Source of the DNA: Macrostomum hystrix | Taxonomy: Eukaryota > Animalia > Platyhelminthes | Assembly: GCA_950097015.1 (NCBI GenBank) | Contig: CATNEN010000039.1 | Span: 10,478,001 to 10,542,000 of the forward strand | Length of the DNA: 64,000 nt | Reading direction: 5' to 3' | Shown: positions 26,091 through 62,664 of the stretch, one piece after another | Layout of the letters: the number at the start of each line of letters is the position of its first letter | How positions within the stretch are numbered: position 1 is the stretch's first letter | Notes under the pieces: generated by a model | Told to the model about the DNA's origin: nothing | The model's database searches: none | Seen by the model: only the letters and a program-made list of their open reading frames with translations | Translations under genes and position numbers: made by a program

Positions 26091-26379
26091 CAAGTCATAA
26101 TATAATATTAAATATACAATATAATAACTATTAAACAATATGAACATGAAACGGAAAACATGAAAGACCAGCAAACGAGGCGACTAAAAAGTAGGACGCT
26201 TGTATATAGTCATGTACCAAATTAGCACGTAATGTGAGTTCTGCTGCTCTCTCACCTAGCCCAGTGTGCGCCTCCAAAATCACCTCTCACCTTTTGCTTA
26301 GTATCCTATGGGTCCGTTCTCCCGTTCTGCTCAATGTATGCCGCCATGCTAATGCACATTCGCTCTAAACCGCCCAAAG

Positions 26380-37760: not shown

Positions 37761-38582
37761 ATGTCTTCAGTTTGGCATTACGAAACTTGTTTGGATTGTA
37801 TGAAATGTCAGCAAGAAGGACTCCGATCCGATCGCCATGAAAAATGTGAAAAAGTGAAATGGGCAGTATGCTGGTAGTGCTCGGAGGTCTCTGTGTTCAA
37901 CGAACAAGCTGCTGCAGAAAATACCAAGGCTCATCGAAATCATCAGCTGCTCCCCGGTAATGAAGAAGCTGAGCGCTCGTTTCGGCGAATTGTCATGGGA
38001 GCAGCAAAGCGCAGCAAGAAGGAGAAAGATGCAGCAATACAAAGAATGAGGGCGCTCAGTCAAGTCATCAATGGAGTCATCAGATCCCGAGCCAGCAGCA
38101 CCAGCTCTAGTGAGGACTTTGTGACTCCAATTAGTGGTCGTCGTCACGACAAAGTCATCACCAATGCTGCTGCTGATGATGATAATGGTGAGGGGCGAGA
38201 GACTCAAGCTGCTGTGCAATCAATAGCGCCAGCTGTACTTCATGCTCCAGTCATCAGGGGCAAGCAGATGCTTCAACCCCCCAGCCCGATGATTGATGAA
38301 GAAGATGGTAGTGAATCCATGGATATTGAACCTGATGTCTTCGCTCTGATTGGTGATGTGACATCGTCTGCTTCGACTGGTGATCAAGCTGTTGCCAGTG
38401 GAGCTGTGTCTGCTATTACTGGTACTATTAGTTCTGCTGCTGCCTTGGCTGCTCCAAACGCTAGCAATGATCATGGCGACCTGTTGGCGGCGGCTATTGG
38501 GATCCCAGCTTTGACTGCCATCGATGCTGATGAGCTGCTGGCGGGCTTTGAAGGACAACAACAACAGCAACAGCCCGACTAG
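37761..38582 (+). pseudogene. left-end hypothetical protein, Cys-rich N-terminus + acidic low-complexity C-terminus; one in-frame TAG (37875-37877)
   Basis: MSSVWHYETCLDCMKCQQEGLRSDRHEKCEKVKWAVCW*CSEVSVFNEQ is in frame with ORF 37893-38582. Confidence 0.6.
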
Positions 38583-40968: not shown

Positions 40969-43900
40969 TGCGATGAAGGCTGCAACGGTCCAGGGCGTGA
41001 TCAATGTGTGAACTGAGAAGTTTCGTTACGAACAAATCAGTGCTTCATTGTAATGAGACTAAATTTGAGCTACTAATAGTAAACCAATATCCCTATGAAA
41101 ATTCTAAGATGAAATTTTGGAACAAGCTTTTGTCTTTAATTAGTCGATTAGCACATGCAGTGGCACACCATCAAGGCAAGCCGTTGTGGCCATATTTGGT
41201 CACCTGAGTTTGACGTCGCCATTTGTTGAAGCCAGTCAGGAAAAGACCTTCAGCACTTGAGTGTTTTTAGTTTTCGATACCTAAATAAAAATAGACTCGT
41301 ACTTCAAAATCAAATACTACTACTTTCAGTAGTATTTGTCGTGCATGCACGAGATGCACGCATGCACGTCCTTCATAAGCTTGTGCAGTGCTGTAGCTGA
41401 GTTAACCATTTGCCTATCAAGTATTTAATCAACAGGGTGCTCAGTGACTCGCACTTTTACTCAGCAGCAGAGCTGCACAATGTCTACTCGATGTACTCAA
41501 ATTAAAGTAGGCGTTGAGTTGAAAAGTCAGGGTTTTGTGAAGAGTCTTACACGGGTATAACTCCCTTGCTGCTCTTATTATATCCAGTTTAGTGTTGCTA
41601 TCAGCATGCGTTTACTGGTGTTATTTTACGGAGCGTCACTTCTAGGCACTACAGACTCAAGCATGCTACTTTCTTTAGATTGTTCGCTCAAGCTAGTTTA
41701 CAATATTAGATCTCGCTTCTCTGCGACTACTGGTCTGAGTACAGAGACAATTCAACTCAGGAACAAAATCTCAACTCGCGATAGCTCGAGCAAAGCTGTG
41801 AGCCATTTCTCTCGACTTAACTAAGGTATTTAACGGTTGAAAGGAGAGAAATGTGTCAAGCCAAACACGCGCGCACATACAATAGCTAAGGGCTACTGCG
41901 TGCATCCAATGATTGGATAGAGGTGCTGCACATATAAAATCCGATTTCGTCGTTAATGGACGTTAAATGGGCGCATTCTGAGCCACGAATCTATCGTCTA
42001 TGGTTGGAAAATGCGAAGTCTTGAACCGGTGTGCCATATAATGGTCCTGAAAACGGGGCCCATTAAACCGTATAATGGGCGCCAAATAATGGGCCGCAAA
42101 TCATTTATTGACGAAAAAACGTTTCAAACATGTTTAAACAAGTAGAATAAGCGACAACTAAGTAGTTAATAGTCAGTGGCAGTAACGGTCAATACCCAGC
42201 GTGAGGTAAACATCGTTAGTCGAATTTGATCTCGATCCTGCCACCCTCGATGACAAGAGACTTGACCCCGTGGCCAGCAGTGGACTTACCGGAGTTTCGG
42301 CCAGACTCCGCTACAGCAGGTTGCCCGCTTGATGGACCACTGACGTTCGTCGGACGACTGGAGTCCTGCAAAGCGTCAGAGGTAATCCTCGTAACTTTGG
42401 CCGATGGGCCTATTCTCATTCGAAATATTATGATCTCAAAATAAAAATTAATAATAATGATTGCTTCTCGATATTCGAGACACTTTTCTTAAGCTCTGAA
42501 AGTAAAACAACGCTAGCAGCTACGCCTGCTCAATCAGTCCTCTTTTAGAATTTAATCGTAGATCGTATAACGCTTGAAGAAATGCTCGAAAAGAAGTTAA
42601 AAATTAAAACGAATGACGCATTTAGCTCGTAGCTATGCTCAACATTTTTTTTCTAGTTCTGATTCGGATAACGCTTGCAGTTATGCTGGATAATTTTTGT
42701 TAGCTTGGAATACAAAAAAATGCTAACAGCACAGTCTTCACTTCTTTTTTAATCCTATTGAATATTGCTTGCAAGAATGCTTAACAAACGCTGAAAGTTA
42801 AAAGGAACAATCGCATTGCTCAAAGTATTTTCTAATATTTCTGAATCAATGAACCATGGCAGATATGCTCGAAAATGCTTTCCTCAGTTTTGTAGCGAAT
42901 AAAACTTGCTGCACTCAAAATTTTTGGGGGGGGGGCGCCCACCCCGAGCCCGCTCCTTATCTGCCTGTCTGGCTTGGAGATCGGGGCCACCTTCCGCCAC
43001 TCCCCCCTTCCGCCGCTACCCACCTTCCCTCGCTCTCACCACTTCCGCCGCTCCACTCCTTAGCGTAGGGATCGAGTTTGCCTACGCTAGTTTGCCGGCA
43101 TTTCTTTGTGTCCTGAACCCATTGTGCCACGCCACCTAGCCTTCTAGTCTCAGTAGTGCACCGCCATACGATGACGCCACGCCCTAGCCACCGGCAAATC
43201 AGTCTCTATCATACTTTCTTCATAATTGTTGCCCGCCGCAGTACAAGAAGTGATTCAACCCTACGTGAAGACCCTGTTCCATTGTTGCCATTGTTGCTAT
43301 ATGTCGCTAATACTGAGCGAGCCTGCATGTACACCTATATCCTCTACGTCGCCAATACTCGTCATCATCTACTACAACGTCATTGCCCGAGTGCTACTGC
43401 TAGACAAATCTTCGCCGTGTTTGTCGTTATTTATTCCACCTGGGTCCTCACCGAGAGCGTCACATTATTTCTTCGATAATTCGCTTTTACCATTTCGATA
43501 AATAATGTTACCCCCTCCATTATTTTTGCCAGCCACTTGATAAATTATTCTACCTTATTGATTATTTATACTCCACCTTGATAACTTTTGCTTTCCTCAT
43601 GATAAATTTTGTTTACCTCTCGATAATTCATTTTCTCCCTCGATAATTCATGCTTCTCTCTTAATCTATCTACTGATTAGCTACTATCATATCCTTTCTA
43701 TGGATAATTACTGCTTCCTTCTTGATAGTAAATGTTTCCTCCTGGATAAATTATGCTTCCACATCGATTATGAATGCTATCTTCTGGAAATCTCATGCTT
43801 TCCCCGAGAAATATCATGCTTATCTTGCTAAACAACTCGTAAAAACGATACAATTGAAAAAGCTAAACGCTAATATTGCTGTGGTTTAAATGTTGTCTTA

Positions 43901-45239
43901 TATTTCTAAATCTAATTACGCTTGCAGCAACGTGCGAAAAATCTGTCCTTAGTTTTATACTGAATAGCGCCTTTTTACGGAAAGACTATATTTTTTTCAC
44001 TATATTAATACTCGTACCCAAAAGAGCTGAATAAAAATGTAAATAGAAAACAGTTACTGATAATTATGCATAACAATAATTAGCTACCCCTAGATAGATC
44101 ATACTACCCCTCAATAATTCCTGCTAGTGTTGTAGTGCTGCTTTTTAATAGCACTTCCCTAGTAATTTAACTTCCTCTATTAGTAATACATAATGCAAGT
44201 GGTTGGCTTAACTTCCTTATTTATTGTTTTCAGTCACTTAAAGTGACCTGTACAATCATTATACCGCACCCCTGTTGGGTTGATTGATTCAAACTACTGA
44301 TAGTTTGGGTAGCGTGGCTTTCAACACGATAGGTCTGGCCTTCTGCCAGTAATGTTCTAGATACTAAATCTAGGTAATTCTGGAGACACTGCTCTCAGGT
44401 GTTTCAGACAATTTAATCAGATATTTCGGGCTCTCTGGCCAGTCTGTACTCGGGCTTCTCCCGGATCGGTCTTTAACGGTTTCCACTCACTTAGAAATAA
44501 GTAAGGCTTTTGAGCATGCTCACAAAGAGACTGAACTGTTTAAGCTCCAATTTAATGGCAGACCAAACGGTTAGCTTCCTGTATGAAAACCCCTCTGTAT
44601 TTATACCAAAAATCCTATCGAATATTCCCAGTATATTTCAGTGGAGTAAAACAAAGTTTATGTATAGATATTTGTAGCATATAAAAATATTTCGCGCGCT
44701 AGTTTAATTTGGCCAATGAGAGCCCTTTACACTATCCCTAAATAAATTATTCTATCCTTTTGAAAAAAGTGCTATACCCTGAAAGTATTATGTTATCCTA
44801 GAAATCTCATGCAATGTACATTAAGTTAGCACATTAAGTTAGCCATATATTAACGCACGTAGGGTGCTACAAGTAGTGACGCAATCCTATTCAATTGAGA
44901 GCATCCGCCCTGTTCTGTGCTACTAACGCACGCACGGGCGAGAAAAAGCACAGATGCAATCTTCTAATAAAGCTGACAGTGTCCGGCCCTATTCTACCGA
45001 AAAAACAGGGTCTATTGTATTCTGGATCTATTCTAACAGAAAATGACGGCTTTTTCGAGCATTAAATGCCTTTAAAATTAGCAAATAATTCGCAAAACGT
45101 GTAACATCTCGTTAAAAGGCAAATATTTTAGAGAAAGAATCGCGAAAATCGGACATCGTTTTTGCTAGAACAACGACAAGACCACATTTTACATTGAGTG
45201 AATGGACACACACACTTTTAGCATAATAGAAGATAGAGA

Positions 45240-45900
45240 GTACAACATCCCTCCCAATAGCTCGTATTGGTTAAAGACGGAGGAATAGAAAATGATTAAA
45301 ATAAGCATTTTGTTTCTACGCATGCGAAGCTCACAAAAGGTAACGTAGTTTGGCACGGGACACAAACTTAAATGCTGTAGGTAAGTCAGATTGTCACAGT
45401 CAAGTCCTTGTTAGCGGTTCGCTTTACTTTGACACCGGATGCTGCCATCGACGGGCGTTCCGAACATCAGATCGGCGGCGGAGATTCCCGTGACGGTGTC
45501 TGGCGTGTTGCTGTACACGGCGAGCCACTCTCGCAGCGCAGCTCGCCAATCAGTTTCTTGGGCTTCAGAAATGCAGAGCAGCTTGCTGAGGGACCGATTT
45601 AGTTGCTCTGTAATGCCATTTAATTTGCAGTGGTATCGTCTGATGCGTAGATGGCTAATCCTGAGACTTTTGACAAAGCTGTTCAACACCTTTGATGCAA
45701 ACAGTGGGCTGTTGTCGGATACAACCTGTCCTGCGGTTCCGAACGTCCCGAAGATCTGCTGCAGTTTTTTGATAGTGGCTTCTGCTGTCATCGATTTCCT
45801 GGCACAACGAATGGGTAGCGTTAGAAATGTTCGACAACTACCATGAAGTGCCGGCCGTTAATTGGCACGAGGAAGTCAAACACGACGGTCTCTGGCGCTG
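45240..45900 (-). mobile_element. Gypsy-like integrase remnant with PPT/LTR start
   Basis: TAEATIKKLQQIFGTFG...VVSDNSPLFAS...NGITEQLN; GGGAGGGA-TGTTGTA at ~45255-45241. Confidence 0.75.
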
Positions 45901-46169
45901 AGTCTCTGGCCTTGACAGAAAAGCATGAGAAATGATACGCAGGAAAGGATGGAAGGAGAGCGTCGCGATGTTACAGATTTCGCGACACTCAGGAAATCCT
46001 ACTCAGAAGTGCGGATATCCCTTTCGAATTTCCTTGTTCTCCATTGCCTACCCTAATAAGTCGTTGCGTTGCTTTAAGGCGAGGGACTCAGCCTTTTCAC
46101 AATATTCAGCATCAGTCCTTTGGTGCAGTGCTAGGGCTAGCGCTGCATGGTCTCTATTAAAACTAATTA

Positions 46170-46439
46170 GTGGCTTTTAAAGGCCGATTGTATGCACAAT
46201 CGCGCTGCTATGTCGAGTGTTTAGAATGTCGTCCGTACTGCATTTCAGACAACAAGACCTTCACAAAGACTGACAGGCCAACCAAGACAGTCACCGCCAC
46301 TGTTGCAACCAACTGGACTGTGTCCGTTGGTTGCAACAACGACCTCTTCTGTCTGGAGGAGTGCGCCAGCAGCCCCAGCTGCCAGGCTGTGATTTTCAAC
46401 GAACGGCAGCTGCTGTGCCACCTGCTCAGGTTTTTTTGA
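46170..46439 (+). pseudogene. PAN/apple-domain fragment
   Basis: FCLEECASSPSCQAVIFNERQLLCHL Cys pattern; no clear start or signal peptide. Confidence 0.5.
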
Positions 46440-47879
46440 GTGCCACTCAAGCTCAAAAATGCTCCGAATAACTTACACCGCGGACCACAAAAATATCTGG
46501 AGAACTAAGGCAGGGACCACTGAGGAAATCGCCAGGGGAAAAAGCATCCGAAATCTCACATTTTCTCGCAACCATTGCCGATCCAAACATTTCCTTCACC
46601 TGCTACAGATAGGTTACTATCAACGAAATGTCAAGATACGAGCGTAGGCCATATTTGAGTTACGAGTTACATAATTGACTGCTCACATATTAAAGTTAGC
46701 ACATTAAAACGTATTTAAAACTAGTCTATTTAACTGCATATTATTTATACGCGGTTTTGAGGTCCTTAATAAAACAAAAATCGATTCTGTTATACTGCCA
46801 AACATGGAAAAAAGAAGGTTAAGCGTCTAAAAATTTCCTGTTTGTTCTAGATCAGAGATACTTGGCAGAATGCGATTTGTACAAAGTTAAAATTTGTTTC
46901 TTTACACGAAAACGTTACAAAACCGGAGTGATGCAGAACCGAGATTGAAACGCGAAATTATTCTTTTTTTCCTTTAACAATTCTTCTAGCTTGCTTATAT
47001 GGTTTTTCGATTTCAATTTTTTCAGTTTTACTTCACTAGCTTCTGCGCCATAAAATTTAATATTCTACCAAAATGACTCATTTAGACGAAAAAGTCTTGT
47101 TGGGAAATGAACTGAATATTGCTTGTACTCTCTTGCTAGCAATTAGACTTTTCTTTTCTGCGTGGCCACTAATTGACAACCAGGCATCTATTGGATAATT
47201 ATCTGCATTGGATAATATTGGAAAATTACCTATTGTAGCTGCCGAAGACCGCGTACAACGTTCCAGCCCCCAGAACCTGCCGTCTATTGCCAGCACGATC
47301 GCCATAGTCCCGAGGAGAGGTCCGATCGGCGTGTGCCGATCGCCATTCTCCTGAAGAAAGGCAAGACATCCGATGAGATTGGCTTCTTCTGGTCGATTGC
47401 CCTGAACTCAAGGCTGGCTAAGCTAGCCGAGCGTTAGGTCCAAGCGTGGCTCTACGGGTGGGCCGAGTTCCAGCACACCTTTTACTTTTTACTTAATTGC
47501 AGGGGGCCTGGGGCACTTGACGCACAAGCGCAGGAACGACTAGGCGGGAGTCGCCCATCGCGCCATCTGGACCCCTGGACACAGAAACCTCACACAGCCG
47601 CAAGCCAAGCGGGGAAGGGGGCGGCAGCCGGAGTGCCTCTATCTCACCACAGGCCCGCACATGCACAGAGCAGACCAAACCAGGGGAGGACTTAGATGCC
47701 TGAATGGTAGGGACGAAAGGACCAAGCCACGCGCGCAGACGGCTGGTGAAACCTCGACGCTCAGAGCACGCATGGCTGGTGCACACCCGCCCCACCCCCA
47801 TACAACGCCTCACTGTCGGCCCAAGGCACAAACACAAACACAAACAAGCAGGCATGCAGAAGGCAGGGGTTAGGCTATT

Positions 47880-48720
47880 CTAAATTAGCTTTGGTTGCAC
47901 AGAATAAGGTGCATCTCCACAAGTCACTACTTCGCAAATCTCCAGCTAAGCCCCGAAATTAGCGTGACTTGGAGGGAGGAACGAACCAGCGACCATTGGA
48001 AAGTGAGGCAGCGACATTCGCCGCTGACCCACTCACCCCCTCCTGCTGCACCCCACTCAGGCCGGTCGATGCGCAGCAGCAGATTGCCCGGCTTACTCAG
48101 CTCATCAGTGACGGCCACCAATAGCCACCCGTCAGAGGAACGGTGGCCGTCTTGTTTGAGTTCCGTAGACTGTATAGAATCAGGGCCTGTTGCACATCCT
48201 GCACGCCGCCTGGATCCGGCCGCGGGCGTTCGCTGGCAAACAAGCCTCTTGGCTGACCGACGAGCTGCTGTCAAGGCGCATGGCGCGCTGAGCAGCTGCC
48301 GGATCTTTCGCGAGGTCCTGCCGCAGTCGCGTTTTTGCCCCACTGCTCTTTGAGCTGAACATCAACGACCTACCCGGCTGCTGTCAGAGTACGTGTATTC
48401 TAAATGAACGTTGCTTGACGCAGACGATCTCGCTGTCGCGGTGCAAGGCTTGACTGCGGAGGAGGCCGAGGCGAAAGCGCAGCGGGCAATTGACGCGGTC
48501 ACCGCCTGAGAGAAGACTGGTTTATCTTTGGCTAAACGATATAACTTTCGCCTTGGACCGCCAGCAGCGCTTCCTCGGCATCATCCTGGATCACTGAAAT
48601 CGGGGTTTCCAGGCCTCTATAGGCGTCAATATTGCACCTGCCTGCGGTTTTTTTATACGAGATTGAGGAGAAGGCCGCTTACCTGTTTAATAACTAGCCT
48701 AGCTTACTAGCCCTGTCTCT
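47880..48720 (+). mobile_element. heavily deleted non-LTR retrotransposon remnant (APE SDH motif + RT)
   Basis: TSDHW; LADRRAAVK; FAPLLFELNINDL; ADDLAV in shifting frames. Confidence 0.65.
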
Positions 48721-48902
48721 TCACCTCCACGAAGAAGTGGGCTAACGTTACAGCCTGAGCAGATCTCGGATATCTCCTGCTTTTTCCTGTGGCGAACAGA
48801 GCGGTTGGGCGCTGGTCAGACATCCGTTCTGAGCAGAGAAAGCTTGGGCGAAGCGCTCAGCCGCGCAGCGGGCTGCCTCCCCTCCTAGCCGGCTGCATGG
48901 CC

Positions 48903-48904
<2 letters not shown>

Positions 48905-48958
<54 letters not shown>
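48905..48958. repeat. (CA)n microsatellite
   Basis: Direct observation. Confidence 0.95.
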
Positions 48959-48959
<1 letters not shown>

Positions 48960-49375
48960 CTTCGTGTTTCACTCTTGGATTCGATTTGATCGAAATATTT
49001 TCAAAAAGGAAAATAATTTTTATTAAGCGTCATACAAATTATTAATTTTCGAAACATAAATGTCCATATCCTAGGCTTTTTAAAAAGTGTACCTGCTTTC
49101 ATAGTTCAAGCATGAGTTCTACGCTGCTTCATTGTCAATGTCATCTTTTATTTGTCAGCTTTTGGTAAAAACCTAACTTCCGTTATAATTAATCAGCAGT
49201 GCTGGAAATTCAAAAAACATTTTGGCTAACTGAGCATCTTAAGTGTTTTCGGAACAAAAAGAGTAAAGGATTGTGTTTTTTTCTTTGTGTGCATTATATA
49301 TATATATATATATATGCATTAACTGGCTGATTGTGCAAATGCTTCATTGCAACATAATCTTATATTCATATTTTT

Positions 49376-49625
49376 AGAGTGGGTTGTAGCCTAGTGGTTA
49401 GATTCGAATCGCAACTCCGCTGTTGCAATTTTTGTGTCCTTTAGCAAGACTCTTTACTCTGAAGTGCTTCAGTTCACCCAGCTGTTAAATGGGTTCCAGA
49501 ATTTACTGGGGTAATTGAATTACTCGTAGGTGGTGTGTTGTCCCCTCAGTCCACGGACTGAACAGCCGTACGCAGCCTTCGCTGCGGCTGTGCTGTCGGC
49601 TGCACATCTGACCCCGAGTGGTAAA
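49376..49625 (+). mobile_element. tRNA-derived CORE-like SINE (internally deleted head)
   Basis: ggttgtagcctagtggttag head shared with 4198-4296; tgtgtcctttagcaagac...ttcagttcacccagctgttaaatggg resembles the CORE domain. Confidence 0.7.
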
Positions 49626-50268
49626 ATTTAATATTTTTTATTATAGTTTCTATTATTACTATTTTTTAGAAAGAAAAATTACAGTTTAGTAAAATGGATT
49701 TTGAATCTCACCTGCACTTTTCTATATTTGTGTGCGACTCGAGCAATTAAATTTAACTAGATTAAGTTGGCCTGTGATTGTTCTATTGTAAGTTTAGCAA
49801 GTACAACTGGATTGATTGGCATTAATTGACTCGCTTTTGTTGTGAAAATATTATTTTGTATAATTTCAGTCTACTAAAAGTGTCCAATCATCTGGTGCGG
49901 ACATCTCAGACTTTGATGAAAAAATTGTCGGACATAGAAGAAGACTTGTCAGAGTCCACAGACACAGACTTGTCGGATTCAACTGGCACTAACTGGTCTG
50001 ATTTGATAGATCAAAGCAGGCTTTCAGATTCTGAGTCTAAACCCGGTCAGAGAAAGACTGGAGAAAAAAAACTGAGATACCGACAGCAGCAACAGCAGCA
50101 GCGGCAGTGGAAGAAGCAAGGACACATCCTATAGCGAAGAGCATAATGCTGAAAGCAGCGCAAGCAATGAAGGTAAAATAAATATATACCTCACATGTAT
50201 TATTTCCTTGCTGTATATTTTATTACGTAATATGAAATAAATGTATACTTGTACCTTCGTTTATACAG

Positions 50269-53200
50269 GCAGTCTTCAGATCATCAATAACGGAGCTGTA
50301 CAAATCATCACAGCACACAATGGAATTATTGAAGCTATTCGGATTCACCCACAGCAGCAGCAGCAAGACGCTACAGGCTCTGATAGGGAACAATCTGAAG
50401 TTGATGCCTTCGCAGGTGTGGCAGCGATGAAAGACTATATTTGCCAGATGCTCTCTGAGAGACTGCTTGTAGGTGTGAACCAACTGGTGCGTGCTCAGCT
50501 GAAGCTTAATGTGCACATGCAGCGGTTGAAAGCAGGTGAGATGGTGGTTGAGGAGGATAAGTGGATTAGTGTTCCTATGAAACAGCTAGACTCAGTTGAT
50601 GAAATCGGCTCATGGTGGACTGACCAATTGAATGGCTGTGAGAGAGTCATTGAGCTGTTAAACACTAATGGCAGCGGCTGGGTGCTCGGCCGTGTCAATT
50701 ACGTTGACTTGTCTATAGCACATGGGGACAGAATTCGCTATTATGCTGGTCATGCCGATCAATTCGAGCTACCCCATGATCTATTAAGTGAAGCAGGCTG
50801 TAATTAATCCACCTAGCACTGGTGATGATTCCTTTGTTTATGCCTGCATTTCTGTCCTTCACCATGATGATAAAGAAATCAGAAAATCGCCTCATCGATT
50901 ATTATCCTACCAGAAATGGCTTCATGAAATCAATTTGGATGGTGTACAAAAGCCAGTTCAGATTAGTTATCTTGATCGAATCGAGTTTAATAATCCCTCG
51001 TTGTGCTTCTCTGTGTTGACTTGGAAGAATGGGACAGTTGAAGTGTTGAGACAGCCGAATGCAGAACTCACCGAAGGTAGAAAAGTAATTCCACTTCTGC
51101 TTCTGACAAAAAGTGATTTTAACACCGTCACCAACACTAGCACCAAAGGGCATTGGTGTGGGATTGTTAGCCTCAACCGTCTTCTCAATAGTCGTTACGG
51201 ACTGCATCAGCGAAAATGGTGCGAAAGATGTCTAACATCTTTTAAATCTGAAGAGCGCCTCCGCACACATCGTGATGAATGTTATCAGTCCAACAGCTAT
51301 ACGCAGAAAGAAGTGATGCCCACAAAAGAAAAATGTATGCTATCATTTACTAGTCATGAGAAGACTATTTCTCCTACATTTGTTGTATACGCTGACTTTG
51401 AGTCATTTAATGAGCCAGTGAACACTGAAGCTTCATCAGGACCGAGAAATGTTTACCATCACACACCTGCGGCTGCAGGTTGTCTAGTTGTTCAACGTGC
51501 AGGTGTAAAAGGACCACTTCTTGGTGATAGTGGATCGATTTATCAGGCTTTTACTGCTGACACTACTGAGAACTGTATTGAGAAGTTCCTCTTCTATCTA
51601 GAAAGACTGTCTCATGAAATTTATGAGTGGAACAAGAAACACAGTTACCAACCTAAAATTATCAATGAAGCTGCTTAAGATGAATTCGGAGAAGCTGAGA
51701 TTTGTCTCTACTGTGGTGTGAAGTTTGATGGTGAAACTTCTTTGAAGGTGTGGTATCATGACCATTCCTCAGGCGAGTTCCGCGGTGCTGCATGCTCAAA
51801 GTGCAACCTTTCTGCTCAGCTGAAGCGACGATACTTGCCTAGGTTCTGCTTCACAATCTTAAAAACTACGACATGCATCTAATTCTTTCTGCGGCATTGG
51901 GAAGAATGAAGCATTGGCGACTTAATGTGGTGCTAATGACCATAGAGAAGTATTTATCTCTTGCTGCTGAAGTAAAAGTTGATGCAGTAACAATTCAAGG
52001 AAAGAATGTGCCACTTTATGTGACGATTCAATTTTTGGATTCTTTCCTGTTTCTAAGCAGCAGCTTGGATTGCCTTGTCAGGGATTTGCCAGCAACCGAG
52101 CAAACCCACACAGGTCGCTTGAAAGAATTCTATCCGAATCTCAGCAACTTTACTCTCGAGGGCAAAGGCGTTTTTCCATACGAGTTCGTTAAAAGTGCTA
52201 CAGACTTAGAGTTGAGAGAGCTGCCACCTCGGGAAGCATTCTTCAACACCCTCTCAAAGACTGAGTGCTCCCCGACACAGTATGACCGAGCGAGAAGAGC
52301 TTGGGAAGAATTCGGAGCCGAAACTTTGAATGACTACATGCTCGCCAATCTTCAAATGGACGTCAGACAGCTTGCAGACGTATTTGAATCTTTTAGACGA
52401 CTAAGCATTCAGGACGATGGCCTTGATCCCGTCCATTTCATCTCTACTCCTGGATTGTCGTTTGCATCGGCCATGAAGAGCACCACAAGTAAGCTTGAAC
52501 TTTTGACTGACAACACTATGTACAGGATGTTTGATAGTGTTGGCGTGCGCGGCGGAATGTGCTTTGTTAATGTGCACCAAGTAGCAACAATCAAGTCAGA
52601 TGTTGAATCAGCTTTACTTATTCCGCTTGATGTTAATAATTTATATGGAGTCGCACTTTCTATGCCGCTACCCTGTAAGGATTTCCGATGGGTCGAGCCG
52701 GAAGTTCTCAGAACCTGGACTGAGGCTACCATTCTAAGTCAGCAGGACGATTCACCTGAAGCATTTCTGATTGAGGTTGATTTACATTACCCTCCAGAAC
52801 TTCATGAGCAAACTAGCGAACTACCTCTGGCACCTGAAAAGTGTTCAATCGAATTTGAAGAGTTCCCAGAATTCATGCAGCAGCTCTGGTACAGTCTCAA
52901 TCCAGACGGTCGAGTGTACAAGGGCAACAGAAAGCTGCTACTCGATTGCTATGACAAGCAGGGCTATATTGTGCTTAGCAGAATGTTGAAGTTCTATCTG
53001 GAACAGGGAATGAAAGTAGTTGAATTCAAACGAGCTATCCAGTTTTCACAAGAAAGCATCTTGGAACCCTACATTCGAAAAAATACTGAGCGAAGGATGG
53101 CATCGACGTCAGACTTTGAGAAATTCTACTACAAGCTCAAGATCAATTCAGTCTTTGGAAAGACCATGGAAAATGGCAGGAAAAGGAGAACAATCCGAAT

Positions 53201-53984
53201 TTAAAGTAACGAAGTAAAAGCGAAGATGCTTGCGTCAAAGCCAAATCTGAAGGAGGTAATCGTGATCAATGAAGATTTGACCATCTTTGAGTTGAGTAAA
53301 ACAACAGTGAAGCTGGATAGACCCATCTACATTAGTCAATGTGTTCTTGACCTATCTAAGCTTTACATGTACTCACTTACTGTACACCAAATTAAAACCA
53401 TGGTTTGAAAAAGAAAATGTGCGTCTGGAGCTCTGTGGCGGTGATACTGATTCATTTTTCCTATGTGTTAGGAACATCGATCTTCTGCGAGACTTCTTGC
53501 CTGCTCTGATTCAACGAGGCATTCTAGATACCTCCAACTATGTTGAAAACCACCCGTTGAAGTCTAACAATTTTAAAGCAAAGCCTGGTTGCATTAAGGA
53601 CGAATCCTGCGGGATTGAATTCGTGAGTGGATTCTTCTCCGACCAAAGCTCTACAGGTTCCAAAGCACTGTTACTAACGCGAGTAAAAAGGCTGCGAAAG
53701 GAGTTCAGAAAGCAGTGCTCAAGAAAGAAATTAGCCATGCGGATTACGTCGCTGCATTTGACTCACTCAAAACTCATGATGTTGTCACTCATCGTATCGG
53801 TAGTCATCATCACGAGATTTATACTATTCAGCAGCGCCAGCGAGCTTTGACAACGTGGGAAGATAAGCGAGCTTGGATTAGTTCCAACGAAAGTCTTCCG
53901 TTCGGCCACTATCGTCTTCGGCATGATGTTGCTGCTGATGCTGCTGCTGCTGCTGCTGCTGCTGATCCTGTCGCGAAAACGTGA
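50269..53984 (+). pseudogene. polB: protein-primed family B DNA polymerase with EndoVII/HNH-like insertion; at least 6 stops/frameshifts
   Basis: GSGW, AVINP, CERCL..F...H..C, VVYADFES (ExoI), HDH.SGEFRGAAC..CN, HNLKNYD, KGVFPYEF, DVNNLYG (A), KLKINSVFGKTMEN (B), GDTDS (C), KDE, EDKR. Confidence 0.95.
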
Positions 53985-54868: not shown

Positions 54869-55443
54869 TTATTCTGCATTCGAGATCAAATTTTGTAGGT
54901 GCACAAAGTCAGATTGTAGTTGAAATAAAGAACGAGCTCCACTTAGAACAAAGGAGCCATTGTGAAACAATAGACATTTGCAAAAGTTAAGTTTGAAAAC
55001 TAGTGCGGAAAATGATTCAGATTGATAAAATGCCTTTGGGATTCTCAAAGACAAGTCTGACAAATACAGAGCAGAACAAACAGATAGCTGTCCATGCGCA
55101 GTAATTGTTTTAATTCGAACACAAACGGGTTGATAAGGCAGCAGCTGAGCAGGCACTCTGCGATGCAGCATAGCCACGAAGCGATGGGCAGCCCTGACTG
55201 AGTCCGAGTAGCTCCGGGCGCCACAGATGCTCAGTTGGCCAGTGGGGTAGAGTAGCAGTGTCACTCTCGGATTCCGGATCCCCTCTTGATGAGCACTCGG
55301 TGCCAGACGGGTCGGTAGATGACATGAGCCATGCTGAGAGTGAGTTCCCGAAGTGGAAGCTGGGCGTCCCTGCCACCGGCCAGTCTCAGATCCACTCCTG
55401 CGACCAGATTGGTAACTCTCGGGGCTGTTGCTTGAGTAGTCAT
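54869..55443 (-). pseudogene. TATA-binding protein (TBP) homologue, ~190 aa, one frameshift in a G-run near 55280
   Basis: PRVTNLVAGVDL...LRELTLSMAHVIYRP...VLIKR / IRNPRVTLLLYPTGQLSICGARS...AAHRFVAML...YQSESFSALVFKL...CLLFHNGSFVLSGARS follows both TBP core repeats. Confidence 0.85.
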
Positions 55444-55544
55444 TTCTAATGCGTCGGCTGTTTGTGAAGTTGCCCGTGCTTCTAGTGCAGGAGGAGCAGT
55501 TTGAAATTGTCATGTGCCACGGGCACTGCTCGCTTCTTAAGCTG

Positions 55545-55972
55545 ATACAAAATGTTGGCTTCAGCCAGCTGTAATACAAAAGCGCGTTTCTCACGGCGCA
55601 GCCGGTATCTGATGTTTTGCTAGATGGCGATCCCAGATCCTCCAGGTTGTACACCTGCCTGCCCAACAGCTGGGTCAGAAATACACACTTATTCTCCCTA
55701 CATGTCCAGGTGGGCTTGCATGCAATTCTTCGGATGTCAGCAGCCAACTCCGTGTAAGGTCGGGTTCCATCGGTCCACTTTAGCCTATGCCGCTTCTGTG
55801 TGAGCTGTCTGTATCGAATTCGCATTCCAGGGGAAACCCTCTCCCAGGAACATGGGGACGCATACACATGGTGGGTGATGAGTTAGCTTCCTGACCTATC
55901 TTATACAACTGCCATCTCCTTCACAATGAAATCACTGTTACATGGAAAGCCTTGGATGTCGATGTAGTACAT
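55545..55972 (-). pseudogene. hypothetical DEDD/DnaQ-exonuclease-like protein, two in-frame stops
   Basis: MYYIDIQGF...FIVKEMAVV...HRLKWTDG..PY...K..FL...VYNLEDLG.P...CAVRNA pattern; fold call is inference. Confidence 0.5.
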
Positions 55973-55981
55973 TTTCAGTCG

Positions 55982-56699
55982 TTAATCGAATTCTTGGCCA
56001 TTAGAATCAGCCCGCTGCTTTCTTATATACTTTTTTTGCTCACCTAGCTTCAGCCAGGCTGTCTTGCACCCAAATCCCTTAACTGCATGTTGTTCTTTTC
56101 CAACTTCAACCTCTTCACTGGTAGCTGGCAGAGACATTTGCTGTCTGAGGGATTTTCCTATAGCTGAAACTGGGACATTAGAACTCTTTTGTCCCAGCAA
56201 GCAAACGAAATCATCCCACCCGGCTGGTTTATTTCGCATTTCAGAATCCCTCACCGCATGCTGAATCAAGTCGACGATGTTCGATGAGGAAATTAACTTG
56301 CCGGAAATTTCCGTCTCCCCACTGTCACCCACCCGAATCAGAGACGGATTGGCTGATAGGATGGCCCATAGACTGCGAGCGCTGGTTTTGAATTTCTGGG
56401 GCACGGACTGGGCAATCTTTTCTGCCCAGCTGCTCGGCAGCATCTCTGCTTTCTGTTTCTGTGCCGCTTCACTCTCTCCTGCTACACTCTCCTTTCCAAC
56501 TTGCTTGCGCTTGGACAACAAACTTTTCATAGCGTTCTGGTACATTGTCTGGCCAATCGTCGGCATACAATATATCATCACATTTTATTTGTGCCTGCTT
56601 TACCGCAATGTCTCCTGCAGACTCATTGAGCTTCACATTACTCATTAGCATGTCATACTCAGACTTGGGAATCAGAACCATCTCGGGGAACTTGTTCAT
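55982..56699 (-). pseudogene. conserved Maverick hypothetical protein (frameshifted)
   Basis: MVLIP N-terminus; GE..I.G..I..SNIVDLI...P.GW..F...L...NVP...IG motif typical of animal Mavericks. Confidence 0.65.
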
Positions 56700-57006
56700 T
56701 TTCCTTCTTTCTTCTATGCACAAGCTTCAGCAGAGTGGGGAGAATTTTAAGGAAATTATGATTTAGCAAGTCAGCTTCTTTTCTTTGAGCTGGGATTTTT
56801 CGAATAATCTGCTTGGACTTTGCCAGCTCAGCCTTTTCAATAAGAGAGAAAGTCAGGTTGTTTTCCAATAGGTTGTAACAGGCTTCAACAAGGAATTTTC
56901 GCACTTCTTTCGGACCGTGCTTGATTAGCAAGCGCTTGAAGCTGACAGTGTATTTCGCTGATGCAAGAATTGCAAAGATGCTTTCATGAAAACAAAGCGT
57001 GTCCAT
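56659..57006 (-). CDS. conserved small Maverick hypothetical protein
   Basis: E.CYNLL.NN..S..EK..L.K.K..IRKI pattern; sits directly after the ATPase. Confidence 0.55.
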   Translation of the reverse strand: MDTLCFHESIFAILASAKYTVSFKRLLIKHGPKEVRKFLVEACYNLLENNLTFSLIEKAELAKSKQIIRKIPAQRKEADLLNHNFLKILPTLLKLVHRRKKENEQVPRDGSDSQV

Positions 57007-57045
57007 TGTGGAGTATAGATATGGAAAACAGCGTATTTGCCATTC

Positions 57046-58047
57046 TTAGGTATAAACTAGGTGGGGGCGCTGGTTGGGCAGGATCCGGGCTCGCACTCGC
57101 AGCTCATCGGGAGTGGATGGGTGGAAATCCAGAAGCAGGTAAGCTCCCCTACCTTTAGCGGTCACATGCTAAAACACAGACAGCAGAAAGCCGGGCTTCT
57201 CTACAAAGCACTGCCTGCCCAGTGCTGCAATCTGCAGCTGGTCTCTGGGGTTTTTCATGATGACAAAGTACATCGCATTCAGACTAATCGTTCGCAACTC
57301 TTTTCCTTTAAAAAATACACTCTGGGTCAGCATTACCAGAAAGCAGGGTAAGTGATGAGCGATTCCGGTGAAAACATTTCGCATCGCAGCAGAGTTAGAA
57401 GTCTCTTCAATCAAATCATCAAAAACAATCAGGTCATTGGGTCTTAGAGCCGCCTCAATGTTGCTGGGGAATCCCTGCTGCATGTGCACTCCCAGGCTGC
57501 TCAGCTCAGAGTGCACTGTCTGCGAAACCCCATAGTACCACAGGACTCTCTCAGGCTTCGTATCAAACATTTTCGCACTTCGCTTCTACAGATTGGCTAA
57601 AGCCGACTATGGAAACCAGTGCGAATAGAACCTGCTATGATGCCCGCCTGCGGCAGGGAAGCTGCATGAATTGCATGCAAGCCCACCTGGACATGTAGGG
57701 AGAATAAGTGTGTACTTCTGTCCCAGCTGTTGGGCAGGCAGGTGTACAACCTGGAGGATCTGGGATCGCCATCTAGGGAAGTTGGAAAAGAACAACATGC
57801 AGTTAAGGGATTTGGGTGCAAGACAGCCTGGCTGAAGCTAGGTGAGCAAAAAAAGTATATAAGAAAGCAGCGGGCTGATTCTAATGGCCAAGAATTCGAT
57901 TAACGACTGAAAATGTACTACATCCCTGTACTGAATTAGCTGCTTCACGAAGGTTGTCTTGCCAGCATTGGTTGGCCCGCTGACAATCATGCAGCTTCCC
58001 TGCCGCAGGCGGGCATCATAGCAGGTTCTATTCGCACTGGTTTCCAT
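57046..58047 (-). pseudogene. A32/FtsK-like genome-packaging ATPase, interrupted by ~350-bp insertion (57571-57924) and a stop
   Basis: Walker A GPTNAGKT; Walker B LIVFDDL; HH...LTQ; RTISLN..Y; KNPRD..QI..L.RQ; YLLLDFHP. Confidence 0.92.
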
Positions 58048-58079
58048 AGTCGGCTTTAGCCAATCTGTAGAGCTGACTT

Positions 58080-58595
58080 TCATAACTTTCTTTTTCTTAG
58101 GCTGGCTTCGAACTGCCGAAGCATTCTGTCATTCAGGTGGCTCTTTTCCTTTGAATGCAGTTGTCGCAGAACCCACTTAAATGACCGTTCGAATTGAAAC
58201 TTCTGATAAGTAAAATAAAGACAGAAGAGGCCGCATTTGACGGAGTCACAGCTTTGAATTCGATCCACATTGCTGCTCAAACGAAGCGGGGAACCTAAGG
58301 CTACTTTCAGTAAACCATGAATAATCATTCAAGTTTTCGAGTCCCAGCCAAGGGAATTGAAAAGCTCCACAGAATTCCCGCAAGTGACGTCGCAAACCAC
58401 CCAGTGGCCTGACAAGGAGCTGTGATGCAACAAAATGAAAATTAATTTGCTCTTATATGTTTTCTCATTCAGGTAACTCCACAATTGTAATTCTAATTCA
58501 GCATTATTGGAACTATTCAAATTTAGAGACACTATAAAAACGTTTCTAGGGGGCAAAAAGCTTCTGGCAAGTTTAAACACCTGAAAAGTGTTCAT
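58080..58595 (-). pseudogene. adenain-like cysteine maturation protease, one in-frame stop (58329-58331)
   Basis: GHWV...ELFNSLG...IQ...SVKCGLFCLYF. Confidence 0.88.
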
Positions 58596-58597
58596 AA

Positions 58598-59882
58598 TTA
58601 TGATGAAAAATCTAGCAAAATTTCCCTATGCTTGGTGACTTCAATCAGAGAGTCATACAGGCACATGGCAATCAGAGTCACGGCCTCGTCAAGCGCCTGT
58701 CGGAACCGAATCTCCAGCCGCAGTTTTCCCTCTTTCTGTCCGTACCACAGGGCTGCTCCCTCGGGTGTGAGGTCGAACGCTAACACGGTGTTGTCGTTGG
58801 AGAAGACCTGATAGGGGATCCAAGGGACCGAGTTGGTGGGGCTGGCAGACTGGAAACTTTTCAGGTAGTGCAAGTACTCTCGCACAAATGAGTTGTTTTC
58901 GGGTGTGAATGCACCGTGGCACATGGTTTCCCCGCCTTTCTTTAAAGCTAGCTGGCTGAGGTTGAAGCTCTGGAACTCGAAGGGGCTGGTGTGATGATTC
59001 CCGTTGAAGGCTCAGTGGCTCACGAAAGCCAGCATGATGAACTTAGGGAGTTTTCAGTGGGTAAAGCCTTCAATGTTCCTCGACTGGATTCCCTGGGGCA
59101 GAATAAAGTTCTGCATTTCGGCTCGCTCCATAGGATAGAGCGCATTCTGGTTGGTCAGTCCCTGCTCATGGGCTAGGCTGATGTGAGAAGCCACCTTGAC
59201 TCGGCGGAGATGCAGGATGCAGTGGGAGATTTCCATGCGGTAGGCTGTGTTGTTTGTGACCGGGGTTCTGATGGCAAATGCAGCGTCGCTGCGCACCAAC
59301 TTAATGTGCAGGTGCAGGTTGTTCAGCAGGAACATGGGGCACTGGAAGATGTCGCTGAGCAACGGTCCGGCATACTCCACCCAGCGGGACTGCCTGTGGC
59401 TCTCCATGTGCGCCTCTGCAGCGGAGTCAGATTGCAGGAATCCAGCGGGGTAGAACTTCAGCTGCTGGGCGTCTGAGGAGCTCATGAGAGCTTTGAAATA
59501 GGCATGATAGGGATAGAGTTGGTCTCCCCCGGACACAACTCGCTGGTTAATGCTCACAATGACATCAGAGAAGAGCGTAGACAGGACGAAGTTTTCAGGG
59601 TGCACATCACTGTCTCGGCGCTCTGTCAGCTCTCCTTCAGCGTTCAGAACATTCTCCCTCAGCAAGCACCCATCCAGTCGGACTAGGCGGCAGCGAATGT
59701 ACAGTAAAGAATTCAATAGATCGGTGTATTCGTCAGCTGATGGGTGGCAATCGAATTCGATGGGTGCATTTGCAGCAATTGAGTTTCACGGGGTGAATAT
59801 CGACATAGGAGGATTTGTCAATGGCAGTCTGCAGCGCAGGAGCCTTGAACAAATCGAGCCTTGGGTTGAATCCATAAGCCAT
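58598..59882 (-). pseudogene. double-jelly-roll major capsid protein (hexon-like), frameshifted
   Basis: LDLF.AP.LQTAI...V.IHP...PIEF...Y.DL.NS.LY; LFSDV.V.IN; YPYHAY; C-terminal LAFDLTP...G.LRLEIRF..AL...VT.I....D..IEV...R. Confidence 0.92.
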
Positions 59883-59884
59883 GT

Positions 59885-60075
59885 CTACGACAAAGAGTCC
59901 AGCACGCGCTTCACCGTTTTCCTGCCGACTTTTCGCTTCCTCTTGCTTACCGTTTTGCCCTTTGCTTTGCTCTCTCCTTTCTTAGGTTTCTTTCTACCTG
60001 CATTGTTCCGTTTCCTTGATTTTTCCCCTTCTTGCCATTTTGGCGAGGTGTCTTCTGTATTCTCTTTTTCCTAGA
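59885..60075 (-). pseudogene. basic C-terminal remnant of putative core/DNA-condensing protein
   Basis: QEGEKSRKRNNAGRKKPKKGESKAKGKTVSKRKRKVGRKTVKRVLDSLS* between penton and hexon; N-terminus apparently lost. Confidence 0.45.
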
Positions 60076-60116
60076 AGCTTTAGCATATTAGTACTGCCGG
60101 ATCAGCTGCTGATAGT

Positions 60117-60904
60117 TCATCGAATAAGTTTCTCCCGGATCTGGATCGTGAGCAAAACAGGACTGCAGCTCTGAGCAGTCAGATGGTGACCAAATGTATC
60201 CCGCAGTTGAATTCGAATGCTGTGTAGAAAATTTGCTTTCTGGATTGGGAAGAACAAAGTTTTCTTAAACAGTTTGCTAAAGTAGCAGCCCCATTCAGCA
60301 TTAGAACCGATGTTCACAGTTCGCAGCAGGGAGTCCCAGTTGCAGCTTGTTCACTCAACAAGGCTGCAGTGCACATTGACCAGGTTGGTGGGCGGACAGC
60401 CGATGCAACAGCTTGACACGTGGCGCCCAGGTGGGATTTTGATTGACTGGTTTCCAAATCCCAACCACTGCAGGATTTTGCTTGGAGGAAGATACAACTC
60501 TGCTCGTGCGGTATTGTTGTGCATCACTGTTCGTTGATTCTGAATTTCAAACTTTATCCCAAAATCTTTATTGCTGCGAGCCATCAGGCCCGATTCATCA
60601 GCCTCCATCTCAGACTCTCTATCGCTCATGGCATCAAAGAACAGTGACTCAGAGTTGACTAGCAGCTCATTCAACCGCTCCACCAGCGTCCGGGTTGAAG
60701 AACCAGGGCCTCATGCTCTCTTCCATCTAAGACTGTGAAGCAGCAGGGCTCGTCAACTTTGAGCCATGCAGCAGGCAGATGGATTTCAGCCAGACCTGCC
60801 TCATAGTCCACATTTCGATCCAAGTATATAGGTGCAGTCAGGCGAAAATTAAAGTCACTAGAAGAACCTTCTGCATGCTCACTGTTTATTATGATGCTGC
60901 TCAT
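60117..60904 (-). pseudogene. minor capsid protein (penton-like), frameshifted
   Basis: S.DF..RL..PI.L...YEAGLAEI.LP..W; VHCSLVE; LLRTV; FFPI...SIRIQLRD..G...V..TI.IR. Confidence 0.85.
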
Positions 60905-60946
60905 TCCTCAAAATCAAAATATTCAAATATCGAATAACTTAGATGT

Positions 60947-61170
60947 CTATACCTTTCTTAAGTCCTTCTCATCCACCCAGCCAGTCGAGTTGTAGTCGGC
61001 CCACTTTACGAGATAGCGAATCTTTCCCTTCCGCTTCTCAGTCTTTAGAATCTTTTCAATCACATACACCCGCAGGGAGTCCGGAACAGCTTAGAGTTCA
61101 TGCTCATAAAAGAGTCATTGAATGTCTTCCCCCCTCATGTCGCGAATCTTGTACATGTAGGGATAATGCT
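60947..61170 (-). pseudogene. Maverick integrase C-terminus with chromodomain; catalytic core absent
   Basis: YKIRDMRGEDIQ*LFYEHEL*...YVIEKILK...RYLVKWADY..GWV.EKDL. Confidence 0.85.
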
Positions 61171-61928
61171 TTGGGGGATAATCCTCCTTCTCTTCATCAT
61201 AGGTCAGCTTTGGCAATTCGTTTGCGTCGTACCTGCGCAGTGGCCAAGGGACCTTTCGTTTGCAACTGCCGCTGCTGTTGCTGCTGAGCGACGAGGCGGC
61301 GCGAAATTGGTACCAGACTGGATCGCGGCTCAAGTCGCTGTCCTGCAGTGGTAAGCGCCCAGATGGAGAGGAAGAACCCACACTGCTTGCCTTGCCCGAC
61401 TGGGCGATGAGTAGCGTCTTCCGGTCCTCCTCCTCCTCCTCACACGTTCCTTCAACAGAAGCCAGCTCAGCCTTGACATCGATGCCCACCTCACGTTTGA
61501 CGTCTTGAGTGCCCAGCTCATATTCACCTTCTGGTGATTTTCCTTGCAGCTCCGAGTCAATCCAGCTCGCTTTTTTCCATAGCTCATTCCATAGGCGGGG
61601 TGACAGGGCCACGGAATTGCGCCTTAGGTATTCTTCCGTACTTGAAGATACTCCGTATCTTCGAGAAGACGCTTGAGCCAGATGGTTCCTCGGCTGACCA
61701 TCGCGATCTTCTCAAAACCAAGCTTGATCGTGACGTTGTGTCGGTTGACCGCGGAGTGTACAAGTTGTTGCTTCACTTGCTTTAGTTTTCCCATTGATAC
61801 GCGTTGAGATTGAATCCGGGCACGCCTGGCTTCAGTTCTCGTTCACTAGAATAGAAGCGCCGAATCGCTATAAAATGATGACCTTCATAATCTTGCACTT
61901 GCACTTTAAACCCGTCGCAGAGATCCAT
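61170..61928 (-). pseudogene. PC4/Sub1-like ssDNA-binding protein (domain 61782-61928) with frameshifted acidic extension
   Basis: MDLCDGFKVQVQDYEGHHFIAIRRFY....LKPGVPGFNLNAYQWE matches the PC4 pattern V.V..F.G...I.IR..Y....KPG..GI.L...QW. Confidence 0.8.
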
Positions 61929-61963: not shown

Positions 61964-62459
61964 TGTGGGGGCCCCCACACCCCCAGCAACTCGTCACTGT
62001 GTGCATGCAGGCGCACTCTCCGCAGCGCGATTGGTTATATTCCACCATTATCTGCCTTCCCGCTTGCCACAGCCACAACCATATCACCATAGAATCATAA
62101 AATCTCTTACCTGGCTCGGCCTGCGCGCCACTGCAGGTGGGGCACAACTCTCTTACCAGGGCCTGATTGGCTCAGCCATCCCAGCAGCATAGACCCAACC
62201 CCTACTATCAATTTGCATTGTCGCTTATCTCCTCAGTACAAGAGCGGCAGAGTTGCATACAGTCATACTACAGCTCTATCTCATCAGACTCAAGATTCAG
62301 AACTATACTCACAAAATATCAATGTTTTCCGGATATACACATTTTATATATTATATGAGCTAGATAGTATATACAGACATATAGATACATACCTTTTACC
62401 TTGACTGCTCACCAATTCCAAACTACAATGCATGCCATGGAATTTCCACGGGATTTCCT
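61964..62459 (-). repeat. right terminal inverted repeat, outermost ~29 bp missing
   Basis: Reverse complement of 36701-37204. Confidence 0.95.
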
Positions 62460-62664
62460 ACACCAATGCAAAACGTTGTCTTTCCTCAGCTCCTGTAAGA
62501 CAAGTAAAACTGAATTCATCACTTATAAGAAATATTATTTCGCGAGTGTTTCTAAGAAATAATCGGTTTTCAAATCGCACTCAATCAACTGACCTAAGCG
62601 AGAAAAACATAATTAGCAAAACAGAATACAATAATTAAGATGCATGGATAAAACTGAACAGTTA
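62460..62664 (+). repeat. third, partial copy of the peptide-gene 3' flank
   Basis: Similar to ~36404-36634 and ~25940-26068. Confidence 0.85.

Follow-up and report, generated by a model that had tools for sequence, protein, structure and literature searches.

Mavericks/Polintons (adintoviruses) are described in PMC8097293 as elements with terminal inverted repeats (TIRs) that end in (AGT)2 or (AG)3 (section 7), a protein-primed family B polymerase (pPolB) and, in vertebrates, two gene modules: integrase, minor capsid protein (mCP), PW, major capsid protein (MCP) and protease (i.e. int-mCP-PW-MCP-pro), and ATPase-PM-PZ. A chromodomain on the Maverick integrase is described in bioRxiv 697771. 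The element analysed here is one Maverick/Polinton copy within a 64,000-nt stretch of Macrostomum hystrix DNA (the window, to which all positions refer). It shares with the described elements the AGTAGT TIRs, pPolB, the chromodomain (in an integrase remnant) and the gene order of both modules, within which the capsid and protease genes are putative. Unlike vertebrate Mavericks, it carries additional TBP-like and PC4/Sub1-like genes, has both modules on one strand with pPolB on the opposite strand, and is a broken, rearranged copy with inserts.

MELD viruses with adintovirus-like PolB, i.e. midsize Polinton-related viruses, have a gene labelled as TBP in the legend to Fig. 5 of PMC8502044 (Starrett 2021), where non-animal datasets are treated; the parts covered contain no residue, promoter or PC4 analysis. 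Beyond this label, no literature on TBP or PC4 function in Mavericks/Polintons was found among the partial texts covered, supplements (including the Starrett 2021 gene maps) lying outside that scope; the words TBP, TATA and PC4 are absent from the main text of PMC8097293 as available, and the looked-up terms have zero occurrences in the available parts of PMC11161782 and PMC10748475. The herpesviral vTBPs (KSHV ORF24, EBV BcRF1, HCMV UL87), which serve TATT late promoters, resemble the Maverick protein in having a TBP fold, a DNA face that is altered and more polar, and a box upstream of structural genes that departs from the canonical one (PMC12529657, in part). According to the same source, ORF24 depends on five further viral factors, binds directly to Pol II and has all four phenylalanines but not the TFIIB glutamates. 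The vTBPs of the ORF24 type are large proteins with additional domains. By contrast, the Maverick TBP is a bare saddle of ~190 aa with the TFIIB glutamates kept, two phenylalanines changed and no evident partner set. Use of host Pol II is established for the beta- and gamma-herpesvirus vTBPs (PMC12529657, in part), and we infer it for the Maverick TBP. The latter would at most work like a herpesviral vTBP; it is not one of them. Giant-virus TBP-like proteins in BFVD are also viral proteins with a TBP fold, the best match (E 6e-10) being from Heterosigma akashiwo virus, and differ in sharing 10-20% identity in the top ten rows. The viruses concerned encode their own RNA polymerase.

The TBP-like gene lies at the inner end of a minus-strand gene block.

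54869-55443, minus strand: TBP-like gene, ~190 codons in intact relatives, frame-broken ~55 codons in

The open reading frame (ORF) at 54869-55825 matched PF00352 (E 5.5e-13; 49 bits, cut-off 22.9), and a PDB sequence search returned 35 TBP sequences at E<=0.01. The TBP start is at 55443, the first 54 residues being in a different frame and 83% identical to the relative P0001. Acceptance of the 318-aa ORF as a genuine long TBP was considered and rejected, as it is a chimera of the upstream gene and the last three quarters of TBP; P0005 is a similar chimera with its frame switch some ten codons away. The first-pass annotation had ended the block with the TBP-like gene: the TBP is real, but the long frame is chimeric and the gene frame-broken. 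Six of 139 candidates matched in a homologue search, four of them 190-202 aa long and 66-71% identical to the window piece. Intact relatives occur in Macrostomum lignano and Logan contigs and are 68-73% identical among themselves. Each of P0001-P0004 contains two PF00352 stretches (E 1e-23 to 4e-22), i.e. a two-repeat saddle, and the AlphaFold2 model of P0001 predicts a full saddle (predicted local distance difference test (pLDDT) 80.9; template-modelling score (TM) ~0.70 to human, yeast and plant TBP). Among 1.84 billion protein representatives, a profile search gave only five matches at E<=1e-30, the next being at 4e-22. In a 38-row tree, the family fell outside the cellular TBPs as a long-branch clade of its own (96/93); its placement in that tree is not settled, and long branches meet. 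Two proposals on ancestry were not adopted. A single origin of Maverick TBPs was suggested by a short-TBP grouping in a 25-row tree (Shimodaira-Hasegawa-like approximate likelihood ratio test (SH-aLRT) 86) that was lost in the 38-row tree, and an archaeal origin was rejected despite archaeal TBPs being the top PDB matches, as a quick tree put the family on the eukaryote side and the 38-row tree gave no placement.

Residues were compared with canonical TBP over five family rows, using what we take to be yeast numbering, set by offset. F190, F207, N69, E186 and E188 were kept in all five rows, while F99>P, F116>Y, V122>S, T124>C, N159>T, V161>T/S, V203>K (read across a two-residue gap) and P191>S were changes present in all five. 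Relative to canonical cellular TBP, every row thus has two of the four intercalating phenylalanines, one of the two central asparagines and Ser for Pro191. N91 and E93, presumably TFIIA-side residues, were also changed in 5/5 rows. The acidic TFIIB stirrup (E186 and E188) was present in all five intact relatives, and only E188 in the window copy. Pro191 enforces T at TATA position 1 (PMC1636458, in part) and E188 is a TFIIB contact (PMC1636458 and PMC12529657, in part). Because the same substitutions recur across relatives that are 68-73% identical, they suggest a retuned DNA-binding surface and not decay. The protein is a TBP-family member, not a canonical TBP.

TAAGAA was tested as a pre-named motif after de-duplication of the block. 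Seven sites were found on the coding strand and none on the opposite strand (1.9 expected). All seven lie 16-147 nt upstream of a start in the homology set, covering 7/10 genes.

60955-60960, minus strand: TAAGAA, 56 nt before the mCP ATG
60262-60267, minus strand: TAAGAA, 147 nt before the PW-like ATG
59979-59984, minus strand: TAAGAA, 102 nt before the MCP ATG
58094-58099, minus strand: TAAGAA, 16 or 52 nt before the ATPase ATG (two candidate ATGs)
57043-57048, minus strand: TAAGAA, 42 nt before the PM-like ATG
56020-56025, minus strand: TAAGAA within TATATAAGAA, 53 nt before the nuclease-like ATG
55534-55539, minus strand: TAAGAA, 96 nt before the TBP ATG

No TAAGAA was present upstream of the PC4 (within 150 nt), protease or PZ-like genes, or in the 4.1-kb polymerase part. 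For the pre-named motif, the null reached at most 13/4000 at all 12 settings. Motif discovery upstream of element genes had been proposed in the first-pass annotation; a de novo 6-mer search ranked TAAGAA top, before 6/10 homology-set starts (10-120 nt), a count reached by any 6-mer in 131/20000 random-window sets and 26/5000 shuffles. Other ATGs were preceded by TAAGAA in 11/127 cases. Under the steric rule for cellular TBP (Patikoglou 1999, second-hand via parts of PMC13566119 and PMC1636458), three of the seven boxes, which read CCTAAGAA, have a C at octamer position 2, which is excluded for cellular TBP (rule as in PMC13566119). A second hexamer, ATTCGA, was observed in 5/10 upstream windows of minus-strand genes in 55443-61928.

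Short TBPs were also sought in metagenome and viral collections. An alignment search returned 23 metagenome loci and two viral loci (one a contig of prokaryotic-virus type, the other a giant-virus bin; PF02229 in 0/2 records), and IMG/VR scans with the TBP and with the ATPase returned no loci. Two of the 23, the unrelated contigs L020 and L025, contain a Maverick-type ATPase; both contigs are <3 kb and too short to show the presence of PC4. L025 encodes a near-canonical short TBP, with the N-repeat phenylalanines kept, beside the ATPase, and canonical TATATAA precedes the ATPase, PM-like and TBP genes of this contig by 35-43 nt. L020 has an ATPase together with a short TBP and a TATAAAA box. 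Judged by gene content, TBP genes occur in other Maverick-like elements, and L025 fits a matched TBP/box code. Back-to-back TATATAA motifs were also observed at 1562-1605 of L025, in the 46-nt gap between the divergent short TBP and ATPase genes, with another at 947 before the next gene.

At the outer end of the block lies the PC4-like gene.

61782-61928, minus strand: PC4/Sub1-like gene, first piece, 48 codons, frame-broken, of the bare C-terminal-domain type
61400-61842, minus strand: downstream frames that may continue the PC4-like gene (candidate second repeat), without matches

The piece (frame ending 61782) matched PF02229 (E 2.4e-6, 27.4 bits against a cut-off of 25) and, in the PDB, human PC4 and MoSub1 (4usg/1pcf, E 6e-5/3e-4), so that the presence of both a TBP-like and a PC4/Sub1-like gene, as first annotated, is upheld by Pfam scores above cut-off and PDB matches. 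Starting at its residue 9, the piece can be aligned with residues 11-50 of the human C-terminal-domain construct, and in the alignment to 4usg Tyr occupies both stacking positions; the roles of the stacking and basic positions are those we assume for PC4. The gene is the outermost on the minus strand, but does not start inside the TIR as annotated: its ATG (61928) is 43 bp inboard of the TIR inner edge and 65 bp from the ungapped arm. Similarity to one related-copy contig stops exactly at this ATG. From this first conserved ATG the piece lacks a lysine-rich region, and the in-frame stretch upstream is TIR sequence and not lysine-rich. The downstream frames had no match in Pfam, the PDB, a homologue search (108-347 aa) or the Atlas, leaving a tandem second PC4 repeat unproven, and a PC4-type search in phages and IMG/VR was blank. 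A protein-primed linear genome replicates by strand displacement, exposing single-stranded DNA (ssDNA). The piece resembles human PC4, MoSub1 and the phage T5 homologue in matching the ssDNA-binding C-terminal domain (PMC7549692 and PMC2592824, in part). It differs from human PC4 in having no lysine-rich N-terminal region, in several changed basic residues and in being broken, and is closer to the stand-alone phage and bacterial forms. Phage T5 uses its PC4 homologue in DNA replication (PMC7549692, in part) and, by analogy, the element's PC4-like protein is likely to be a replication ssDNA-binding protein separate from the TBP. This function, originally offered as the alternative to a two-component initiation kit, is a better fit than partnership.

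Our favoured reading, to which we give about an even chance, is that the element TBP reads TAAGAA and recruits host TFIIB and Pol II for the capsid and packaging genes, with PC4 as a separate ssDNA-binding protein. Host factors would likely express the polymerase and PC4 early. The element TBP would then likely bind NNTAAGAA before most core genes, a TBP of the P0001 type being expected to bind NNTAAGAA better than TATAAAAG or scrambled DNA, and would likely recruit host TFIIB and Pol II via the kept stirrup glutamates, driving the capsid, packaging and its own gene. Transcription would start ~25-30 nt downstream of the box; the box-bearing genes may be 'late' in timing, and the box before the TBP gene may provide positive feedback. 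The PC4-like protein would likely serve strand-displacement replication.

Several observations weigh against this reading. The protease and PZ-like genes lack the box, and the box-to-ATG spacing is spread from 16 to 147 nt. When corrected for all 6-mers, the null ranged from 3 to 1173/4000 by window size (3/4000 at 150 nt, 1158/4000 at 80 nt), so that the enrichment is not significant at windows of 60-80 nt. Six boxes checked fall in codons of the upstream gene (Leu/Ile-Arg-Lys, Leu-Arg-Ser, Pro-Lys-Lys and Phe-Lys-Lys), and because they sit in basic-residue codons, basic C-termini could favour TAAGAA. The host-TBP rule (PMC13566119, in part) is passed by 4/7 boxes, and wild-type TBP tolerates G at position 6 (PMC1636458, in part). 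As to the protein, replacement of two of the four intercalating phenylalanines may mean that DNA binding is weak or lost, the assignment of position 203 hinges on the gap noted above, and the stirrup of the window copy reads YQSESF. As to PC4, several basic residues of the human protein are absent from the piece, and homologue searches found no intact relative (70-226 aa for the piece, 108-347 aa for the downstream frame).

A first alternative, which we consider unlikely, has the box read by host TBP or another host factor. The element TBP would then act as a decoy or repressor by sequestering TFIIB or other partners, or would bind DNA with no preference for sequence. The four boxes that satisfy the host rule, one being the full TATATAAG, are in keeping with it, as is a protein with kept TFIIB glutamates and half of its intercalating pairs changed; against this, 3/7 boxes fail the host rule on the coding strand, and recurrence of the same DNA-face changes across 68-73% identical relatives suggests selection for a new specificity.

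The initiation kit of the first-pass annotation corresponds to a second alternative, in which element TBP and PC4 act together in the pre-initiation complex, PC4 being a coactivator or a stabiliser of the melted promoter. The TBP half of that proposal is borne out by a conserved family, an altered DNA face and an upstream box; the pairing with PC4 we regard as quite doubtful. Both genes lie on one strand of one element, and the PC4 C-terminal domain is said to mediate repression and coactivation (PMC2592824, in part), but the element's piece lacks the lysine-rich region (1-62), which coactivation in vitro requires (same source). Moreover, no box precedes PC4, its gene neighbour is the integrase remnant, and ~6.3 kb and eight genes separate it from TBP. 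Cellular PC4 acts at the TFIIA-TFIID step, and since the TBP residues that we assign to the TFIIA side (N91, E93) are changed in all five family rows, the pairing is weakened further. A possible parallel was seen in locus L003, where an ORF at 3-359 (plus strand) containing two beta-beta-beta-alpha units precedes a short TBP by 9 nt; PC4/Pur-alpha chains are among its fold matches. However, the model has a pLDDT of 58, the matches (Z 3.3-3.5) do not rise above background (best unrelated 4.4), and L003 is not established as a Maverick.

It is also improbable, in our estimate, that the box is a product of chance or codon usage and that the TBP target lies elsewhere. The non-significant all-6-mer correction at 60-80 nt and the location of sites in basic-residue codons point that way, but the 7:0 strand bias, the position of 7/7 sites <=150 nt from a start, the use of two codon phases and the low count before other ATGs (11/127) do not. 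The weakest explanation, very improbable in our view, is that the TAAG core is an initiator-type late promoter for other (helper-virus) machinery independent of TBP, as the late motif of baculoviruses is a TAAG initiator: in some cases the spacing to the ATG is too short for a -30 box, being 16 nt at the first ATPase ATG and 7 nt at the EGFR-like ORF described below, but the other 6/7 block sites lie 42-147 nt upstream, the second ATPase ATG is at 52 nt, and a helper virus is not in evidence.

From the right TIR inward, the minus strand carries the PC4-like gene, integrase remnant, probable mCP, PW, MCP and protease genes, and the ATPase, PM, PZ, nuclease-like and TBP-like genes, an order that matches both vertebrate Maverick modules (order per PMC8097293). 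The genes between PC4 and TBP are as follows.

60947-61176, minus strand: integrase C-terminal remnant with chromodomain (PF00385, E 2.5e-6 at 60950-61090), core missing in the window copy
60117-60904, minus strand: probable mCP gene, in three frames, from gene order
59885-60120, minus strand: broken gene for a PW-like small basic protein, from position; related-copy contigs carry extra sequence near 60086
58598-59882, minus strand: probable MCP gene, in pieces, from gene order
58080-58595, minus strand: adenain-like protease gene, in two frames (PF00770, E 0.0022, under cut-off)
57169-58083, minus strand: A32-like packaging ATPase gene (tblastn E 1e-24 / 4e-17 to the ATPases of L020/L025)
56659-57006, minus strand: PM-like gene, between ATPase and PZ; a similar-sized gene is at the same place in L025
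55982-56699, minus strand: PZ-like gene, in two frames, from position; 65% over 48 aa to P0006
55450-55972, minus strand: small nuclease-like gene with internal stops and an N-terminal D-x-Q-G-F motif; its frame continues over the TBP start

The stretch before the chromodomain was assigned to the integrase by a motif that we take to be typical of it, and the mCP and MCP names rest, beside gene order, partly on motifs that we presume to be theirs. The capsid genes had no library match (Pfam for mCP and MCP, PDB for MCP), and the C-terminal 40 aa of MCP are 90% identical to the Macrostomum lignano gene model P0006, in which a capsid end, ATPase, PZ and TBP are joined in the same order as in the window. 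The closest named proteins are likewise from Macrostomum lignano. The nuclease-like gene, whose D-x-Q-G-F motif we read as DEDD-nuclease-like, had no Pfam match, and its region is 62% identical to P0005 over 334 aa. Its frame (55450-55620, minus strand) is open over the TBP start in both the window and P0005, and a frame break fuses both genes in each; this is possibly a real gene overlap. The ATPase gene is split at 57571-57919 by an insert of three short pieces (85, 109 and 147 nt), which are inverted copies, 98-100% alike, of element sequence close by. This patchwork is either a recent template-switch-like rearrangement or an assembly artefact. Of the virion genes that the first-pass annotation had placed between PC4 and TBP, the ATPase is supported and the protease weakly so, and the capsid genes are named from order and presumed motifs. 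PC4 and TBP do mark the two ends of a same-strand block, but what they bracket is nearly the whole core minus the polymerase, including the integrase remnant and the PM-, PZ- and nuclease-like genes.

The boundaries of the element and its polymerase were located as follows.

36672-37192, plus strand: left TIR, starting with the Maverick end motif AGTAGT at 36672
61971-62459, minus strand: right TIR, outer end truncated and abutting a host repeat
50788-53984, plus strand: pPolB, broken (PF03175, E 2.8e-16)

The TIR arms (36701-37192 and 61971-62459) are 98% alike over 492 nt. With the outer right end missing, the 6-bp target-site duplication of Mavericks has no second copy here for comparison. 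Contigs of related copies (runs X1 and X5) extend past 62459 into sequence unlike the window, and contigs from 3/4 runs continue into unlike sequence at 61174-61176. Related-copy contigs differ from the window copy where the TBP is broken, bridge the ATPase insert and continue where the integrase core and TIR end are missing, so that the damage is peculiar to the window copy. The element is a degraded Maverick/Polinton, and the window copy itself is dead.

Host-type repeats plus an rve fragment at 41000-49800 swell the element to ~25.8 kb; the fragment (45411-45857, minus strand; PF00665, E 2e-5) is retrotransposon-like and looks like a separate insert. The left flank (35001-36567) is a 1.6-kb repeat, 92% identical to 24553-26097, and a piece of the same repeat (62459-62664) abuts the truncated right TIR. 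An acidic low-complexity ORF without a Pfam match adjoins the left TIR (37860-38582, plus strand). Also between the TIRs is an intronless 583-aa ORF (39217-40968, plus strand) resembling an EGFR/LET-23 ectodomain (PDB LET-23, E 1e-21; Pfam L and furin-like domains). This ORF has a hydrophobic N-terminus, no kinase and a TAAGAA 7 nt upstream of the ATG, and may be either a soluble decoy receptor that the element captured or an insert acquired later. Positions 1-34000 of the window are host sequence with satellites (e.g. a 23-nt unit from 5613) and what we take, from translations, to be mariner-, LINE- and Gypsy-like fragments, a fibrinogen-like ORF (2125-2814) and leucine-rich-repeat exons.

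We propose tentatively, and at somewhat less than even chances, that some animal Mavericks run a one-protein 'late' programme: they would have captured a minimal TBP that plugs into host TFIIB and Pol II, its DNA face having evolved together with a TATA-like box of its own (TAAGAA in the window, or TATATAA where the protein is near-canonical). The boldest form of this proposal, with PC4 as a second subunit, is a long shot. If true, the one-protein programme would be the smallest herpes-like viral initiation switch and would include a natural altered-specificity TBP. It would also represent an orthogonal TBP-promoter pair of natural origin in an integrating virus of ~20 kb, and would be evidence for staged, virion-forming expression in Mavericks.

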